This document shows, one piece after another, positions 7,041 through 40,434 of a stretch of 64,000 bases of DNA; the first letter of the stretch is position 1, and the number at the start of each line of letters is the position of its first letter. Both the position numbers and the translations under genes were made by a program. The DNA lies in IMG/VR virus record IMGVR_UViG_3300010354_000001, positions 1 through 64,000 of that record; one strand, written 5' to 3'. Origin of the DNA: a virus. The notes beneath the pieces were generated by a model. It had not been told where the DNA came from, did not search any database, and worked only from the letters and a program-made list of their open reading frames with translations.

Positions 7041-7421
7041 TTACGGGAGTTTGTTGCTTAGTTTTCTGATAGCATCTTTGATAGCATCAAACTCTTCTTC
7101 CATGAAAGTTTTTAAGCTATCAACCTTATTTTGCATACTTAACAAGGGAACTAATGTGCTATTCATTTTCTCTACGTTGAGAATTAAATCGTGAATACTT
7201 TTCGTTATAACTGGAAAATTTACTGTAGCGGTATCTATAAACGATACCATTGATGTGAAAACTCTAGGTAACTGAGTAGTACAAAGAAAGACTAGAATTG
7301 CAATAAAGGATAGGCAAAGAGTGAATATTACTATAGGAATCCAGTTATCTACAAAAGTGACTACTATGTCAGATGCTATTTTTGCAGTTTCTTCTGTGAC
7401 ATTTAAACTTATAATTCCCAT
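7041..7421 (-). CDS. Small membrane protein, possible holin
   Basis: One hydrophobic helix (WIPIVIFTLCLSFIAILVFLC) then amphipathic coiled coil; holin role is inference. Confidence 0.55.
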   Translation of the reverse strand: MGIISLNVTEETAKIASDIVVTFVDNWIPIVIFTLCLSFIAILVFLCTTQLPRVFTSMVSFIDTATVNFPVITKSIHDLILNVEKMNSTLVPLLSMQNKVDSLKTFMEEEFDAIKDAIRKLSNKLP

Positions 7422-8678
7422 CGGAATAATCCCTTCATAGACATAAGTGCCTATATAAACTCACTTATGGTATAATTGTACTATGAGAGGATTTGAAGTA
7501 AAACTATATCCAAATAAATCTCAAATAGAACAGTTAAACAAAGAGTTTAACTGTTCGAGATTCATCTATAATAAGATGATAGAAATATCTCAAAAGAAAT
7601 ATCATAGAACAGGTAAATCTTTATCTGGCTATGATATGCAAAGTTATCTGCCTAAACTTAAGAAAGAGTTTGTATGGCTTAAAGAGCCTTCGGCTCAACA
7701 ACTCCAAATAACCTGCCATAATCTGGCAGAAGCATATAATAGATTCTTTAAAAAACTTTCTAAATATCCTAACTTTAAAAAGAGATCTAGCAAAGCTAGT
7801 TATACTGTAGTTACTAACGTAACTTTATTAGATACTCATATAAAACTACCTAAGCTTGGCTTAGTTAGATATAGAGGAGGAGATAAACCTTTAGGTGAAA
7901 TCAAAAGAGTAACAGTAAAGAAATCTGCCTCTGGCAGATTTTATGCTAGTATTCTTTTTGATACTAAAGAGACTTTACAGGAGTCTAAACCCTTTAGTAC
8001 TATAACTGGTATAGATTTAGGAATTAAAGATTATCTTATTTGTTCTAATGGGGATTTTATACAAAATCCCAAACATTTAAGAGTATCAGAAAAGAAGCTA
8101 AAAGAAAGACAAAGAAGACTTAGTAAGAGCCTGAAAGGCTCTAAAAAGAGAAATCAAAGAAGAATAATTTTAGCAAGAACTCACGAAAAGATAGCTTTTC
8201 AGAGAAAAGATTTTACCCACAAGGTATCAAAGATCCTAACAAGCAAATGCGAGAATCAAGCATTTGCTTTAGAGGATCTAAATATAAACGGAATGATTAA
8301 GAACCATAAACTAGCTAAGTCTATTGCTGACTGTAGTTGGGGAATGTTCAAGACATTCCTCAACTATAAGGCAGCTAGTCTTGGCAAACAAGTATTTACT
8401 GTAGATAGATTTTATCCATCTAGTAAAACTTGTTCTAGTTGTGGTATAGTTAATAATATGCTTACTTTAGATCAAAGGTCATGGAACTGCCCGCATTGCG
8501 GATCAGTTCATGACAGAGATCTAAATGCAGCTATTAATATTAGCAAAGAAGCGTGGAGGAACTACGCTAGTGGAGGGGCGATAAGCCCTGAGACACTCGA
8601 AAGGGTGGCTCAGGCAGCCCCAGCGAAGCTGAAAAAATCACTTTATATTCAGTAATGTCTATGAAGGGATTATTCCGA
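7421..8678 (+). mobile_element. Non-autonomous TnpB-carrying element bounded by perfect 24-bp terminal inverted repeats
   Basis: TCGGAATAATCCCTTCATAGACAT (7421-7444) is the exact reverse complement of 8655-8678; the only gene inside is tnpB, oriented against the late operon. Confidence 0.88.
7483..8655 (+). CDS. tnpB: RNA-guided endonuclease TnpB (IS200/IS605/IS607 OrfB family)
   Basis: N-terminal KLYPN..Q HTH, RuvC-I GIDLG, RuvC-II ALEDL, Zn ribbon CSSCG/CPHCG, RuvC-III DRDLNAAINI; all catalytic residues present. Confidence 0.96.
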   Translation: MRGFEVKLYPNKSQIEQLNKEFNCSRFIYNKMIEISQKKYHRTGKSLSGYDMQSYLPKLKKEFVWLKEPSAQQLQITCHNLAEAYNRFFKKLSKYPNFKKRSSKASYTVVTNVTLLDTHIKLPKLGLVRYRGGDKPLGEIKRVTVKKSASGRFYASILFDTKETLQESKPFSTITGIDLGIKDYLICSNGDFIQNPKHLRVSEKKLKERQRRLSKSLKGSKKRNQRRIILARTHEKIAFQRKDFTHKVSKILTSKCENQAFALEDLNINGMIKNHKLAKSIADCSWGMFKTFLNYKAASLGKQVFTVDRFYPSSKTCSSCGIVNNMLTLDQRSWNCPHCGSVHDRDLNAAINISKEAWRNYASGGAISPETLERVAQAAPAKLKKSLYIQ

Positions 8679-8697
8679 AAGAAGTGTACCTACAAAG
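8550..8697 (+). ncRNA. TnpB omegaRNA (scaffold about 8550-8677, putative guide about 8678-8697)
   Basis: Overlaps the tnpB 3' end; hairpin AGCGTGG-AGGAA-CTACGCT, GTGGAGGGGC..TAAG..GCAGCCCC..GAAGCT, 3' hairpin CTTTATA/TATGAAG, ends TTCCG. Confidence 0.8.
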
Positions 8698-10378: not shown

Positions 10379-12691
10379 TTATCCTTTTTTCTTGGTTAGG
10401 TTAACTACTGGAGCTCCGCCACTGTCTGCAACAGCTAGAGCATTGCCTACTTTAACTTTGGTTACAGGTACGCCAGCAGCGTCTGCTTTAGCGAATGTTG
10501 TGAGTAGGTTTAGTTGCCCTTTTTGAGTTAGCTCTGTTTTACCTTTAGCTGCTAATAGTGCTGCTAGAGTTTGTGCGTAGTTTAACCCAGTAGCAGCAGG
10601 CTTAGGTATCCCTGTACCAGGGTCTATAGGAGGAGTGTCAGGAGAAGGTATCCAAGCCCCAGGGTCGGGGTTAGTAGTACCTACCATTAGGGCATCTATG
10701 TAATCTTTAATTTCTTGAGATAACTTAACATCTATAACCGCAGGCTGAGGAGGAGTGTACGTAGCAAATGGGTTAACTTTCATAGCAGCAGAGTATTTAC
10801 TCTGGACTACTATTTCTTCTTCAGTGAAAGCTAAAGTCTGAGCAACCAAGTTATTTGCATTATCTAAAGTATCTTTAGTTAAAGTCATAGGCAAGAAAAC
10901 TAAGCCATTAAAAGTGCTTAAAGTATTACTCTTACCTGGGTCTTGTTTATCAGTGTCGAAAAACTTATCCGTAAATATTCCTTTAGGAGGAGTGGTAGAA
11001 AGTCTAGCACTAGTTTTGATAGAGTCTACTTGCAAAGCTAAGTCAGCAACTACCTCATTGAGATACGCTATGCTTCCTTTAAGTTTAGTTTGCTCTTTTT
11101 GGTTTACTCGTATGTTGCCTACACGTCTTACTACTGGGGGATTAAAGAAATCTAAGTAAACAGCAGCTAAACCTAAAGCATCAGAAGACTCAGTAGGCTC
11201 ATTAGGATTAAGGTAATCAGCTCTTCCCTTAACTCTGCGAATAACTCCTTTTTCAGTTATTTCTAAAAGGTCTACTCTTTTTAGATTATATGTATAATTT
11301 ACGTTACACACTGTACCGTTTTCTATAGTTCCGTCAGCTCCTTGATCAGAGATAGTGAATGTGTCAAACCCTATAGAACCTGCATCAGGCAGTATAGATT
11401 TATTGTAGGTGTAGACTACATCGTAAGTAGCTCCAGCTACAGGCTCAGCCCCACCCAAAGCCCAGCTCACAGTACTTCCGACTAGGCTATAATCTACGCC
11501 TTGCGTGTAGCCAGCGATACTTATAATTTGAACAGCAGGGATAAATCCAGAAGGTAAGTTATCTGCCCCATTAGCAGTAATACCTCTAGTTAGGGTTTTA
11601 GTTACTCTTAATTGAGTAGCAACCCCAGAAACAGTATTGATAGGGCCTCTATCAACTGTAATAATCGCACCAGTAAAAGTAAACTCTACAGTATAGGTAG
11701 ATCCTGTAGCAGGTTCAGCTCCACCTGGAGCCCAAGAAATATTATTTCCTGATAGGGTATAGTCTGTAGTCACCGTGTAAGTGGTAGCTCCCTGCTTAAC
11801 AGATACTATAGATAAAACATTTGGCCTAGGTAAAGCATCCGTTCCGTTAGCAGCACCTTTAGTAATAGTCGCTGTAAATGTTCTAGCCCCAGTACTGATA
11901 GTATCTGGATCTGAAGTAATAGCTTGAGTATCAGGATCTTTAGCAAATTCAATCCTTTGGGAAGTAGATCTAGATATTTGACGACCTAGAACTGCAACTA
12001 ACCCAGGCTCGACACTATATACATACTCATTATCTTCAGTGTCATCATAGTCGAAACTAATACCGACACCATCTATGACATAAGAACCATTAACATTATT
12101 ATTATAGTTAACTACTAAATTCTCTACTTCCGCAAGTACTGGAACAGTGCCTACTATAATTAAAACTCCGTTATCAACATCTACTGAAGGGTAGAATATA
12201 CCGCCTGCTTGAGAACGTGTGCCAGCAGCAGTTACATAACCCCAATTAACAGATTCTTTAAGTCTGTGGGAAGTTTCTAAACCAGAAGATGCGTAAGTTA
12301 CCCCAGGAGCTATGCTACCTGAAGGATCTAACAGATCTGTATCCTCTGCAGACGTTATAATTTCTTGAGTTAAAAACACACCAAGCTTAAGTTTTACGTT
12401 TGTAGGAATAGTAAATGTTTGTTGATCGTAGTGCCTAATATCTTTATTTACGTAAACCGCTCCAGCAGGAATTATTACTTCTCCGCCAGCTTTAACTACA
12501 GGAGATCCACCAGAAACTATATCCCCCTCTTTTAAAAGAATATCTGCTAACTTTTGGCGTTTATAGTCAATAGTATCTTGAAGCTCATTAGCCTCGGCAG
12601 CAGTTAATAACTTTTTAGGGTAGTGTAAGTGTTTAGTATAATCCTTATCAGGGTCGAATAAGTTTTGATAGTTTTGCGGGAAGTTTACCAT
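10379..12691 (-). CDS. DUF4815-like virion/baseplate-associated protein (N-terminal part)
   Basis: YQNLFDPDKDY..LTAAEANELQ, duplicated QG.DY.L.G..SW..GGAEP..G.TY.V domains, KGIFTDKFFD. Confidence 0.75.
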   Translation of the reverse strand: MVNFPQNYQNLFDPDKDYTKHLHYPKKLLTAAEANELQDTIDYKRQKLADILLKEGDIVSGGSPVVKAGGEVIIPAGAVYVNKDIRHYDQQTFTIPTNVKLKLGVFLTQEIITSAEDTDLLDPSGSIAPGVTYASSGLETSHRLKESVNWGYVTAAGTRSQAGGIFYPSVDVDNGVLIIVGTVPVLAEVENLVVNYNNNVNGSYVIDGVGISFDYDDTEDNEYVYSVEPGLVAVLGRQISRSTSQRIEFAKDPDTQAITSDPDTISTGARTFTATITKGAANGTDALPRPNVLSIVSVKQGATTYTVTTDYTLSGNNISWAPGGAEPATGSTYTVEFTFTGAIITVDRGPINTVSGVATQLRVTKTLTRGITANGADNLPSGFIPAVQIISIAGYTQGVDYSLVGSTVSWALGGAEPVAGATYDVVYTYNKSILPDAGSIGFDTFTISDQGADGTIENGTVCNVNYTYNLKRVDLLEITEKGVIRRVKGRADYLNPNEPTESSDALGLAAVYLDFFNPPVVRRVGNIRVNQKEQTKLKGSIAYLNEVVADLALQVDSIKTSARLSTTPPKGIFTDKFFDTDKQDPGKSNTLSTFNGLVFLPMTLTKDTLDNANNLVAQTLAFTEEEIVVQSKYSAAMKVNPFATYTPPQPAVIDVKLSQEIKDYIDALMVGTTNPDPGAWIPSPDTPPIDPGTGIPKPAATGLNYAQTLAALLAAKGKTELTQKGQLNLLTTFAKADAAGVPVTKVKVGNALAVADSGGAPVVNLTKKKG

Positions 12692-12696
12692 TTGGT

Positions 12697-12814
12697 CGGA
12701 TTTATCCTTCTAGTTTTTGGCTAGAGTGAAATTATCGGCTTCGCCGAGTCTGCTTTTACTCTCGTATGAGTAAGTAGTCTTATTAACTCTCCACCTACGC
12801 CCATCCTAGGCGTA
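12697..12814 (-). ncRNA. Stand-alone TnpB omegaRNA-like scaffold, copy A (guide would be about 12696-12677)
   Basis: 82/84 identical to 61349-61432; aligns with the tnpB 3' scaffold with compensatory changes; ends GGATAAATCCG. Confidence 0.75.
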
Positions 12815-12824
12815 AAATTTCTTA

Positions 12825-12863
12825 CAGGTGCTTGGTTATCGCACCTGATTCAATTATACTACG
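12825..12863 (-). promoter_or_regulatory. -10 promoter (CGTAGTATAAT) plus leader hairpin upstream of omegaRNA copy A
   Basis: TATAAT at 12858-12853, then hairpin CAGGTGC-9 nt-GCACCTG (12847-12825); the same GTAGTATAAT motif occurs near 4812-4821 and 13873-13882. Confidence 0.65.
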
Positions 12864-12894
12864 TTCTTAACGTGTGCTAATGGGAGGTGGGGAA

Positions 12895-20325: not shown

Positions 20326-21270
20326 CTATTTTAATTGCTCGCAGATTGATAGAAACGCACTTTTTCTTACGTTTCCTTTGGCTTCCTCTTTAGTATCCGC
20401 TTTGGTAGCTTCTATTTCAGAAGAATTTGATCCTAGTTTTGAATCCTCAACACTCTTAATAAGAGTCTCGTACTTAACTTGTGACTCTTTAGCTTGAGTT
20501 TCAAACTTCTCAGTTTTAGCTAACAATTCAGCAAACTTACCCTCGTAAGCTTCTAAAGCCTCTTTAGCTTTAGCTATCTCTTTAGCTAGTTCTGCATTTT
20601 CAGTTTTGATAGTTTCTAAAGCTTTTTCAGCTTCTTCTAATTTACTTTCTACAGAAGGAGTAGCAACTTCGTCTACTTTGATCTCTTCTTTTACTTCTTC
20701 TTTAATCTCTTCTTTTACTTCTTCAACTTCATCTTTCTTAAGATTAGTTAGAGCAGATTCTAAAGTTTTGATTAATTTATCTATTGTTTTGCTCATATTT
20801 ATTTCGTCTTGATCTATTATCTGATCTGCTAAAAGTGTACTACAAGTTTTTTCAGCTATAGAATCCTCGTCTTCTTCGTCCTCGTCTTCGTCTTCCTCGT
20901 CTTCGTCATCAGACGTAATTCTTGGGTCGTTAACCCAAATAGTAAATCCCTCACCTTTAATCTCAGTGAGTTTTTCTTCCACGTTAAAATCCTTAGAGTA
21001 TATGATGTACTGTTCGTTCTCTACAGACCAAGCAGACTCATCGTAAATATCAGCATCGTCAAAGTTCTTCTCCACAAAAGCCATACCAACATTCATGTCG
21101 GTAAAAGCTATTTTCTTAATTTCAGTTCCAGTTTTTCTTTCTGATTTTAAGGTAAATCTTTTTTGATTAGCTCCACGATTAACTAAGCTGATTTTTACTG
21201 GATCAGCATCCTCTATCATATTTACTGTTCTTGCGTAAACCATTTTTTTAGGCTTCATGTTTAACCTCAA
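20326..21270 (-). CDS. Putative scaffold / protease-associated protein
   Basis: ISLVNRGANQKRF motif, acidic tract, long coiled coil. Confidence 0.7.
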   Translation of the reverse strand: MRLNMKPKKMVYARTVNMIEDADPVKISLVNRGANQKRFTLKSERKTGTEIKKIAFTDMNVGMAFVEKNFDDADIYDESAWSVENEQYIIYSKDFNVEEKLTEIKGEGFTIWVNDPRITSDDEDEEDEDEDEEDEDSIAEKTCSTLLADQIIDQDEINMSKTIDKLIKTLESALTNLKKDEVEEVKEEIKEEVKEEIKVDEVATPSVESKLEEAEKALETIKTENAELAKEIAKAKEALEAYEGKFAELLAKTEKFETQAKESQVKYETLIKSVEDSKLGSNSSEIEATKADTKEEAKGNVRKSAFLSICEQLK

Positions 21271-21868
21271 ATCTATGTGCGTGACCGTTAGTTATGTCTG
21301 TGGCAGAAGTTCCAGACATAGTGTGCGAGTGTCCTTTATCCTCGCTTGTGTAACCTTTGACAATCAAACCAGCCCCATCAAACTCTGCATAGAACACGTG
21401 TGAGTGTCCCTCAGTATCCTCTGTTACCCCAGTAGCGTAAGCTACAGACTCAAAAGGAACTACTGTAGGAATAGTGTAAGCTTTAACCTCATAACTAAAT
21501 CCGTTAAGAATACCACGTTTAGCTAGATCCCAAACCGCATCATCCTCTATCTTTATAGCTACTATCCAAGAGCCTTCTTTAAAATCTAAATCTCCTTTTC
21601 TAGCAATAAAACTTTCTACTGGGTAAGCATTAATAGCTTGCTGGTTATGTTGAATGTCTATTACTTTAGATAGGTCTGGCAACTTTAAAAATTTATACGC
21701 TAGCTTTTCTATCTCTATAGAAGTCATCATGTCTCCATGTGCATCTACTACGTTAGGTTCGTATACTAAACCGTAAGCTATTTTCTTTTCGTCTGAGAAC
21801 TTTTTAAGTTCAAGTTTGTTACCTTCAGGCATATCCCTAAGTGTACTATCGTGTAGTAACACTACCAT
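21248..21868 (-). CDS. XkdF-like prohead serine protease (likely start 21832)
   Basis: YGLVYEPNVVDAHGD, IDIQHN, VESFIA, GSWIV, GILNGFS; His-rich C-terminal GHSH repeats. Confidence 0.88.
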   Translation of the reverse strand: MVVLLHDSTLRDMPEGNKLELKKFSDEKKIAYGLVYEPNVVDAHGDMMTSIEIEKLAYKFLKLPDLSKVIDIQHNQQAINAYPVESFIARKGDLDFKEGSWIVAIKIEDDAVWDLAKRGILNGFSYEVKAYTIPTVVPFESVAYATGVTEDTEGHSHVFYAEFDGAGLIVKGYTSEDKGHSHTMSGTSATDITNGHAHRFEVKHEA

Positions 21869-22769
21869 CTGACCCTACTAACGTAGATCTGCAATTAGGA
21901 TGGTACATACCAGGCACAGGAACGCCTGCATCCTGCAAACTATCTTTATCTATATAAGGATTTACTCTTGTGGAAATCTCAGGACTAGTAGAGTAATAAG
22001 ATCTCATTCCTATTAATGAAGTATCTACTCTATATATGTTGCCATCTAGACTAGTACATATTTCAGTAGTTTTATCGTCTAAAACTGCATCGTATCTATA
22101 ATAAATTACATTAGCTTGACTTAGTTTTTCTAAATATGCTAAATGGTAGAATTTACTCACCTCGGAATTAGCTAACATAGAGAAGTAAGAGTTTTCATTA
22201 AAAGCTTTATTTATATACTCCTCTGTTAAGTTTTCGACATTCTCTATTCTAGGTATAAGTATTCTTCTAGCAAAATTATCCGCATAAAATACAGCCTTTT
22301 CTACTATGTTATTTACATATCTATCAACACCTATAGAGGTCTCGTTATTAAGAAGTGAGTTATATACTGAGTTACTTATAACTCCACGAAGTCTAGCTAA
22401 TCTTATAGAGTCATCTACTGCTATTTTAAATAGCTCGCTAAAGAATTTGGATAATTCAGATCTGTCACTGTTAGTAATAATCGCAGTATTTCTAAGCCTG
22501 TCTAAATTATTAGTTAAAAATACTCTAGACTGCGGAGATATTTGATTTGTTTTAATGCCTCTAATAATCTCAGCTTTTATAGTTTCAGTTCTAGTTATAA
22601 ATAGTCCAGCCAAGAAAGCTGCTAACTCCTTCTCTCTAGCTGTAATATTTTCTACTTGTCTTTCTTCCTGCTTTCTAAAAATACTAAAGACAGACATATC
22701 TCTCTCAAATTTATACGTATTGGATTTTTCTATACCGTCTTTATAGTCTTGGCTTCTGAATAAATACAT
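21846..22769 (-). CDS. Minor head morphogenesis protein (SPP1 gp7 / Mu F-like)
   Basis: AVLDDKTTEICTSLDG and HPNCRS motifs. Confidence 0.9.
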   Translation of the reverse strand: MYLFRSQDYKDGIEKSNTYKFERDMSVFSIFRKQEERQVENITAREKELAAFLAGLFITRTETIKAEIIRGIKTNQISPQSRVFLTNNLDRLRNTAIITNSDRSELSKFFSELFKIAVDDSIRLARLRGVISNSVYNSLLNNETSIGVDRYVNNIVEKAVFYADNFARRILIPRIENVENLTEEYINKAFNENSYFSMLANSEVSKFYHLAYLEKLSQANVIYYRYDAVLDDKTTEICTSLDGNIYRVDTSLIGMRSYYSTSPEISTRVNPYIDKDSLQDAGVPVPGMYHPNCRSTLVGSDGSVTTR

Positions 22770-40308: not shown

Positions 40309-40318
40309 GTTCACGCTT

Positions 40319-40334
40319 AAAGGGATGATTCCGA
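40319..40334 (+). repeat. Isolated copy of the element-end motif AAAGGGATGATTCCGA
   Basis: 14/15 match to AAGGGATTATTCCGA at the right end of the TnpB element. Confidence 0.5.
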
Positions 40335-40434
40335 ATGAGTTTGCTTTTAGATGGAATAATAGGGGGATTGAAGATATGTTTGGGTTAATTGTTAGAAGAG
40401 GAGTTTTAGTTTAGTAGGCTAAACTAGAGTTAAT

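Follow-up and report, generated by a model that had tools for sequence, protein, structure and literature searches.

The window, by which we mean the whole 64-kb stretch of DNA analysed here, is the first part of a virus record of 113,974 bp (~114 kb) whose ends overlap by 123 bp, which points to a circular or DTR assembly. Between two of its ORFs lies a stretch of ~194 bp without a protein-coding gene, here called mini-element A, which ends at the start of a tail-type gene. The features of the locus are as follows:

12697..12890, minus strand: mini-element A, ~194 bp without an ORF, made up of a degenerate left end, a promoter, a leader hairpin and an omegaRNA scaffold
12853..12880, minus strand: predicted sigma70-like promoter; -35 TTAGCA at 12880-12875, 16-nt spacer, -10 TATAAT at 12858-12853
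12825..12847, minus strand: leader hairpin A; CAGGTGC, loop GATAACCAA, GCACCTG
12697..12813, minus strand: omegaRNA scaffold A, 117 nt, with TCCG at its end
12677..12696, minus strand: predicted guide A, ACCAAATGGTAAACTTCCCG, directly 3' of the scaffold and spanning the ATG of the DUF4815 gene
10379..12691, minus strand: DUF4815 tail or adsorption-type gene (Pfam PF16075, E=1e-117), immediately downstream of A

A first-pass annotation had read this locus as a stand-alone omegaRNA scaffold preceded by a TATAAT promoter and a leader hairpin and followed by a guide at the beginning of the DUF4815 gene. Each of these features was recovered: a promoter scan of the element gave 10 of 12 matches to the sigma70 consensus, the leader hairpin is present and is compensated in a further copy (C, below), and the predicted guide and its target contain the start of ORF 10379-12691. 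Over a short stretch of DNA this ORF also matches Rhizobium phage genes that carry the annotation 'adsorption associated tail protein'.

In a BLAST comparison with the whole genome, copy A returned a segment at 61432-61349 (82/84 nt, 97.6% over 84 nt, E=4e-39), reproducing the match between 12731-12814 and 61349-61432 that had been reported in the first-pass annotation. Genome-wide searching showed that the phage has five scaffolds (T, A, B, C and D) and two tnpB genes, both intact, with scaffolds C and D and the second gene, tnpB-2, lying beyond the window:

7422..8677, plus strand: tnpB-1 element; ORF 7483-8655, scaffold T 8551-8677, guide 8678-8697
61319..61431, minus strand: omegaRNA scaffold B, 113 nt; core 96.5% identical to A
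61299..61318, minus strand: predicted guide B, ATTCTCTTTGAAGACAGACA, the flank 3' of the TCCG end
genome 79547-80802, minus strand, beyond the window: tnpB-2 element; ORF 79560-80735, scaffold D 79547-79664
genome 87324-87518: mini-element C, 195 bp, both ends kept, with 25-nt inverted-repeat ends
genome 87404-87518: scaffold C, stand-alone, found by BLAST and by covariance model R1

Model R1 was built from six scaffolds, these five and scaffold E of a related phage, and its matches in the phage genome are exactly the five and none besides. The scores were 106 bits for A (E=1.5e-23), 107.5 for B, 133 for D, 124 for E and 102 for T. The model found no match on the contigs of four further relatives or among 17 viral TnpB loci that are more distant, and exact and degenerate scaffold patterns retrieved no additional copy from IMG/VR. 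One metagenome scan produced 46 matches, the sole real one being a contig (L118) with its scaffold at the same site as element E. Across the IMG/VR patterns, the metagenome scan and the contigs of relatives, copy A is thus known from this genome only. The cores of A, B and C are 94 to 98% identical (A-B 96.5%, A-C 94%, B-C 97.6%) and each copy is followed by a different flank, so that on these alignments the three form one subfamily that differs in its predicted guides. The TCCG end is common to the scaffolds and six distinct 20-nt flanks follow it 3'; in T, A and B the base after TCCG is A.

The layout of A and B comprises a 7-bp hairpin with a GGA loop, the segment GGUGGAGAGUU...UAAGAC, an inner hairpin, the segment GCAGACUC, a hairpin with a GAA loop, a copy-specific 3' hairpin and the terminal UCCG. 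The 3' end of the in-window tnpB aligns with both copies column by column and, together with the R1 scores, these alignments establish that A and B are homologous to tnpB 3' ends and right ends, as the first-pass annotation had maintained. The individual features that it had listed also withstood the comparison, namely the GGA-loop hairpin 1, the exchange of GAGTT/GACTC for GGGGC/GCCCC, the GAA-loop hairpin, the variable 3' hairpin and the TCCG followed by A. On the model-based alignment the fold contains 33 pairs, with standard pairing in 91.4% of cells and compensatory (two-sided) changes in 14 of the 33 pairs; none of 500 shuffles did as well, and when the 3' partners were slid by 1-3 columns as a control only 23-47% of cells paired. 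The covariance-model check that had been suggested therefore upheld the fold, and the scaffold structure is supported by covariation. Scaffold lengths range from 113 to 118 nt. The GGA at columns 22-24 can pair with the 3'-terminal UCC in seven of seven sequences, both segments being invariant and hence giving no covariation signal.

The hairpin formed by the terminal repeat in C, D and E is missing from A and B, each of which has an unrelated hairpin in the same place. The retention of a different hairpin by each copy where the repeat was lost fits selection on an RNA rather than on a transposase-binding site. Resemblance to a known RNA family extends to Rfam RAGATH-18 (RF03064), the guide-RNA core of IS607-type TnpBs, which matched A, B and D over its full length at 21.4, 21.8 and 18.7 bits, all below the gathering threshold of 44.9 bits, so that these matches are to be read as resemblance and not as membership; an Rfam search of T gave no RAGATH-18 match. 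Taken together, the alignments, the fold and the promoter motif support the view that copy A is a stand-alone, promoter-bearing and structurally intact omegaRNA scaffold.

Upstream of the scaffold, A can be aligned with C from end to end (194 versus 195 nt). The left end of A is homologous to that of the tnpB-2 element, and its promoter is the same module as that found upstream of tnpB-2, common to D and C. This module, which reads ...CCCATTA(A/G)CA(T/C)ACGTTAAGAA(C/T)GTAGTATAAT and lies 5' of A, C and tnpB-2, corresponds to the left end of tnpB-2 together with its promoter. In C the leader hairpin has the counterpart TAGGCAT, loop GATAACCAA, GTGTCTA, so that three pairs are compensated between the two copies while the nine-base loop is identical. 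The left end of A is degenerate, with a deletion of 3-4 nt, and its right-end hairpin has been replaced; conservation among the copies is much higher in the scaffold core (A, B and C) than in the left end and the leader. From their shared architecture, A and C are evidently two copies of one internally deleted element of the tnpB-2 type.

The ends of these elements differ from those of IS200/IS605 elements, which have subterminal hairpins, depend on TnpA for their movement and possess neither inverted repeats nor target duplications. By BLAST, the tnpB-1 element is bounded by an inverted repeat of 24 nt without mismatches (7421-7444 and 8655-8678), the right arm of which is also the 3' end of omegaRNA T, and it has no target duplication. 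Terminal inverted repeats of ~25 nt occur in C, D and E, and C is flanked in addition by an 8-bp direct repeat, TAGCATAC (contig L013 1417-1627, equivalent to genome 87316-87526), whose counterpart in a related contig (L173), TATCATAC, is single. Copy A has neither an inverted repeat nor a target duplication. Judged by these sequences, the element ends are not IS200/IS605-like, and that of tnpB-1 is not IS607-like either. The phage genome yielded no detectable Y1 or serine-recombinase (TnpA) gene, and a mobilising IS1595 DDE transposase was considered and set aside, as a search of the genome with Pfam PF12762 returned nothing at E<=0.1.

The A site is empty in all four of the IMG/VR contigs that cover the junction (L003, L004, L006 and L007; 90-97% identity to the DUF4815 protein). 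The empty alleles read ...CTAACTAGATAA CCAC ATGGTAAACTTCCCT..., the window having ~200 extra bases at that point, and the two genes that flank A are only 4 nt apart in them, as in an operon. The target-like sequence in the empty alleles is ACCACATGGTAAACTTCCCT, with CTAGATA directly before it; guide A departs from it at position 5 and again at position 20, leaving one mismatch in the first 16 nt. The tnpB-1 site is likewise empty in two relatives (G002 and G003), which have TAC where the element would be, and the empty T alleles (L008 and L009) differ from guide T at positions 1 and 4. Two further relatives (L170 and L171) have an empty tnpB-2 site, with indels at the D junction. Conversely, the related phage G005 carries a tnpB-2-type element (E, 89% nucleotide identity) at a site where the window has no insertion, 21854-21862. 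The sites of several elements are therefore polymorphic, from which it follows that the family has been recently active in this phage lineage. At the G005/L118 site, the empty counterpart in the window is the overlap at 21846-21868 of ORFs 21248-21868 and 21846-22769, and the filled allele has extra flanking bases with a repeated GTGCTG.

Close to the junction, every empty allele that was found at the A, T and D sites departs from its guide by a mismatch or by an indel, so that none of the sampled relatives is a predicted target. The suggestion in the first-pass annotation that related phages could be cut at empty alleles thus stands in so far as the A site is empty in four of four contigs, while cutting of these particular alleles is not predicted in view of the mismatch at position 5 of the guide. 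Differences of this size fit the 8-18% by which these phages diverge in general, and these few sequences can be read neither as escape nor as refutation.

The left flanks of the copies share no single motif unless the element boundary is set inside the inverted repeat. TCCCAT, which the first-pass annotation had put forward as a common TAM, does occur upstream of A at 12885-12880 and lies outside the tnpB-1 element, the empty allele of which has CCCCAT at the same position; we nevertheless doubt that it is a shared TAM and have set it aside as unproven, since it falls inside the inverted repeats of C and of the tnpB-2 element (D), and since no CCCAT stands beside the target in the empty A alleles. 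The search for empty alleles with a CCCAT-like TAM at A accordingly delivered the alleles and not the motif. The bases before the guide-like targets in empty alleles are AGATA (A), TATTA (C) and CATTA or CACTA (T), from which (A/G)(T/A/C)TA may be drawn as a candidate TAM, a lead only, given three sites and registers chosen partly post hoc.

Which nuclease would use scaffold A can be approached through the two tnpB genes of the phage, whose products are 57% identical. TnpB-1 has Pfam matches to OrfB_IS605, Cas12f1-like_TNB and an HTH domain, and TnpB-2 matches ISDra2 TnpB at E=2.6e-69; aligned with the latter, TnpB-1, TnpB-2 and the homologue from G005 all retain the catalytic (RuvC) residues D, E and D. 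Although tnpB-2 lies 67 kb from copy A, the core of A is 82% identical to D and 58% to T, and the left end and promoter of A are of the tnpB-2 kind, which together make TnpB-2 rather than TnpB-1 the likely partner. We regard TnpB-2 as probably the nuclease for copy A, its compatibility with the scaffold being suggested by the 82% identity; as A, B and C are no closer than ~82% to D, the true cognate could also be a third TnpB that is absent from this genome. The multi-guide TnpB system envisaged in the first-pass annotation is accordingly retained in its main outline, that of several scaffolds with different guides, with a change of partner: the in-window TnpB-1 to which the scaffolds had been assigned is an unlikely one, and their closest tnpB lies outside the window, though in the same phage genome.

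When reference genomes were searched with TnpB-2, the relatives returned were no more than 44% identical and gave no donor IS and no clue to the host; a large protein search found closer relatives at 87-94% (P0001, P0003 and P0004). The nearest named cellular relatives (42-46%) are mostly cyanobacterial (Anabaena, Nostoc, Planktothrix, Scytonema and Microcoleus), which is at best a weak hint about the host.

We propose, giving the idea roughly even chances, that copy A is a tnpB-less miniature of the tnpB-2 type, a fixed guide cassette, driven by its own promoter and used in trans by TnpB-2 for homing into relatives that lack A. Its observed basis is the homology, the fold, the promoter motif, the intact nuclease gene and the insertion polymorphism; from these we infer a course of events that runs through transcription, loading by TnpB-2, TAM recognition and cleavage to homing. 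The A cassette would be transcribed from its own promoter, its scaffold would be bound in trans by TnpB-2, and 16-20 nt of flanking DNA would serve as the guide. In a mixed infection, an insertion-less relative with a matching target and a suitable TAM would then be cut between its baseplate and DUF4815 tail genes, and repair templated by the A-bearing genome would transfer the cassette along with the neighbouring tail-gene alleles. B and C may act likewise at two other loci, in which case one nuclease gene would serve several drive sites.

A broader version, which we offer tentatively and consider possible rather than probable, is that a TnpB family with inverted repeats and target duplication has spawned ~195-bp cassettes of promoter plus scaffold that together would act as an RNA-guided, multiplexed means of gene drive or exclusion between co-infecting phages. 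If this is true, the one nuclease is redirected by each cassette to the site where that cassette is inserted, and the arrangement would stand functionally between the transposon omegaRNA and the CRISPR-like organization of one effector with many guides.

Other accounts of copy A have to be set against the proposed guide cassette. A pairing of A and B, as trans guides, with the TnpB-1 encoded in the window (7483-8655) has in its favour that scaffold T shares the architecture and the invariant motifs GUGGAG, AUAAG, GCAG, GAAGC and UCCG with both copies, that TnpB-1 has the D-E-D residues and that its gene is the nearer one to A; we nevertheless find this pairing distinctly unlikely, because core identity is 58% for A-T against 82% for A-D with proteins only 57% identical, because the left end and promoter of A are those of tnpB-2 and not the left end of tnpB-1, and because A, B and D share weak RAGATH-18 matches that T does not have. 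It is also rather unlikely, if somewhat less so, that A is an inert relic, a decaying and immobile mini-transposon without current function. Its want of an inverted repeat and of a target duplication, the lack of any Y1, serine-recombinase or IS1595 DDE match in the phage and its presence in this genome only would all be expected of such a relic, yet decay does not sit well with a core that is conserved among A, B and C at 94-98%, far above the left end and leader, with stem substitutions that are compensated, or with a 3' hairpin that was swapped for another and not lost.

The remaining alternatives concern A as DNA or as a regulator in cis. Lying within an operon, A could act through its promoter or its RNA structure on the tail gene instead, as a mobile promoter or cis-regulatory insertion that controls the DUF4815 gene and has the omegaRNA fold only incidentally. 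The predicted promoter is indeed directed into that gene and, since the flanking genes are 4 nt apart in the empty alleles, A adds to it a new promoter and 5' leader. This account leaves unexplained why the same scaffold is kept in B and C at unrelated loci, C lying where a convergent ORF terminates, and why the whole 117-nt scaffold has been retained, and we think it improbable. Very improbable, in our estimation, is that the sequences are transposon ends at the DNA level only, with the conserved pairing reflecting hairpins recognised by a host-supplied transposase: the 25-nt terminal inverted repeats of C, D and E and the 8-bp target duplication at C, single-copy in a relative, are what this would predict, but the covariation covers ~90 nt internal to the ends, and A and B keep the scaffold without the repeat.

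As a trans-acting guide cassette, A would belong to an already known kind described in bacteria, for stand-alone omegaRNAs that act in trans have been published. According to the summary in PMC10691335 of Altae-Tran et al. 2021, they function with compatible effectors and add target sites without duplication of the nuclease gene. Copy A resembles the loci so summarised in being effector-less, evidently mobilised and resident in the same genome as effector-containing loci; it differs in lying in a phage genome, in being fused directly to the parental tnpB promoter and in its proposed role, which is homing or exclusion between phages and not maintenance in a bacterial chromosome. The PATEs of Geobacillus stearothermophilus, IS200/IS605-related elements that encode omegaRNAs and need TnpB in trans (Meers et al. 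2023, PMC10055086), are similar in having no protein, in keeping parental end sequence (both ends in C, a degenerate left end in A) and the omegaRNA, in depending on TnpB from another element and, at A, in an insertion polymorphism with empty sites in relatives. Here, in contrast, terminal inverted repeats of 24-25 nt bound the parental elements, an 8-bp target duplication flanks C, A and B have no matching ends, and no TnpA was found in the phage genome.

The omegaRNA of ISDra2 has a minimal scaffold of 116 nt, a pseudoknot that pairs positions -5..-3 with -105..-103 and the TAM TTGAT (PMC10097598). To the homology between the two nucleases noted above can be added that the scaffolds described here are of like size (113-118 versus 116 nt), overlap the tnpB 3' end and start exactly at the minimal ISDra2 start (-116), and that the potential GGA:UCC pairing beside the guide, which is invariant here, resembles the pseudoknot; the TAM, however, is not evident in our sequences. 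The outcome that we propose, the cutting of a co-infecting relative with co-conversion of flanking markers, is that of the free-standing homing endonucleases Seg and Mob of T-even phages, whose intronless homing is reviewed in PMC13565253, except that here an RNA would guide recognition, and separate guide cassettes would multiplex it. The same 2026 review treats 'transposon non-restorative homing' between co-infecting phages as theoretical only, and a full-text literature search found no description of multi-guide TnpB in phages. If TnpB-2 does load these cassettes, one nuclease gene with at least three extra guides would bias the inheritance of dispersed loci in mixed infections, tail and host-range genes among them; transposon non-restorative homing between phages would become directly testable; and the cassettes would be a source of compact natural guide units with defined 5' ends.

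The surroundings of the other copies and ends offer some further observations. Copy B has no recognisable left end; hairpin 1 of its scaffold overlaps the stop codon of ORF 61424-62884 (DUF2828/DUF7788), and a TATAAT is found nearby at 61445-61440. The B locus is covered by no close relatives, homologues of the neighbouring gene being at most 38% identical. An 18-nt sequence upstream of scaffold B, AGTATGCTATAATTAAAA at 61435-61452, is the same as the promoter region in the left end of the G005 element E, and it also codes for KYAII, the native C-terminal end of the DUF2828/DUF7788 protein, an end conserved among its homologues. Between scaffold B and a tRNA-Ile, beside the same gene, lies a tRNA-like T-arm, TTGGTTCAAATCCAACC (61244-61260, minus strand), for which neither ARAGORN nor Rfam made a call. 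At 40316-40335, just upstream of an EcoRI-type methylase gene, CTTAAAGGGATGATTCCGA is similar, with 4 mismatches, to the final 18 nt of the right end of tnpB-1 (local BLAST piece, E ~0.7) and may be a solo end remnant or a chance likeness. Finally, the right end of element C encodes the C-terminus, RTYPINIR, of the product of ORF L013 1593-1925.
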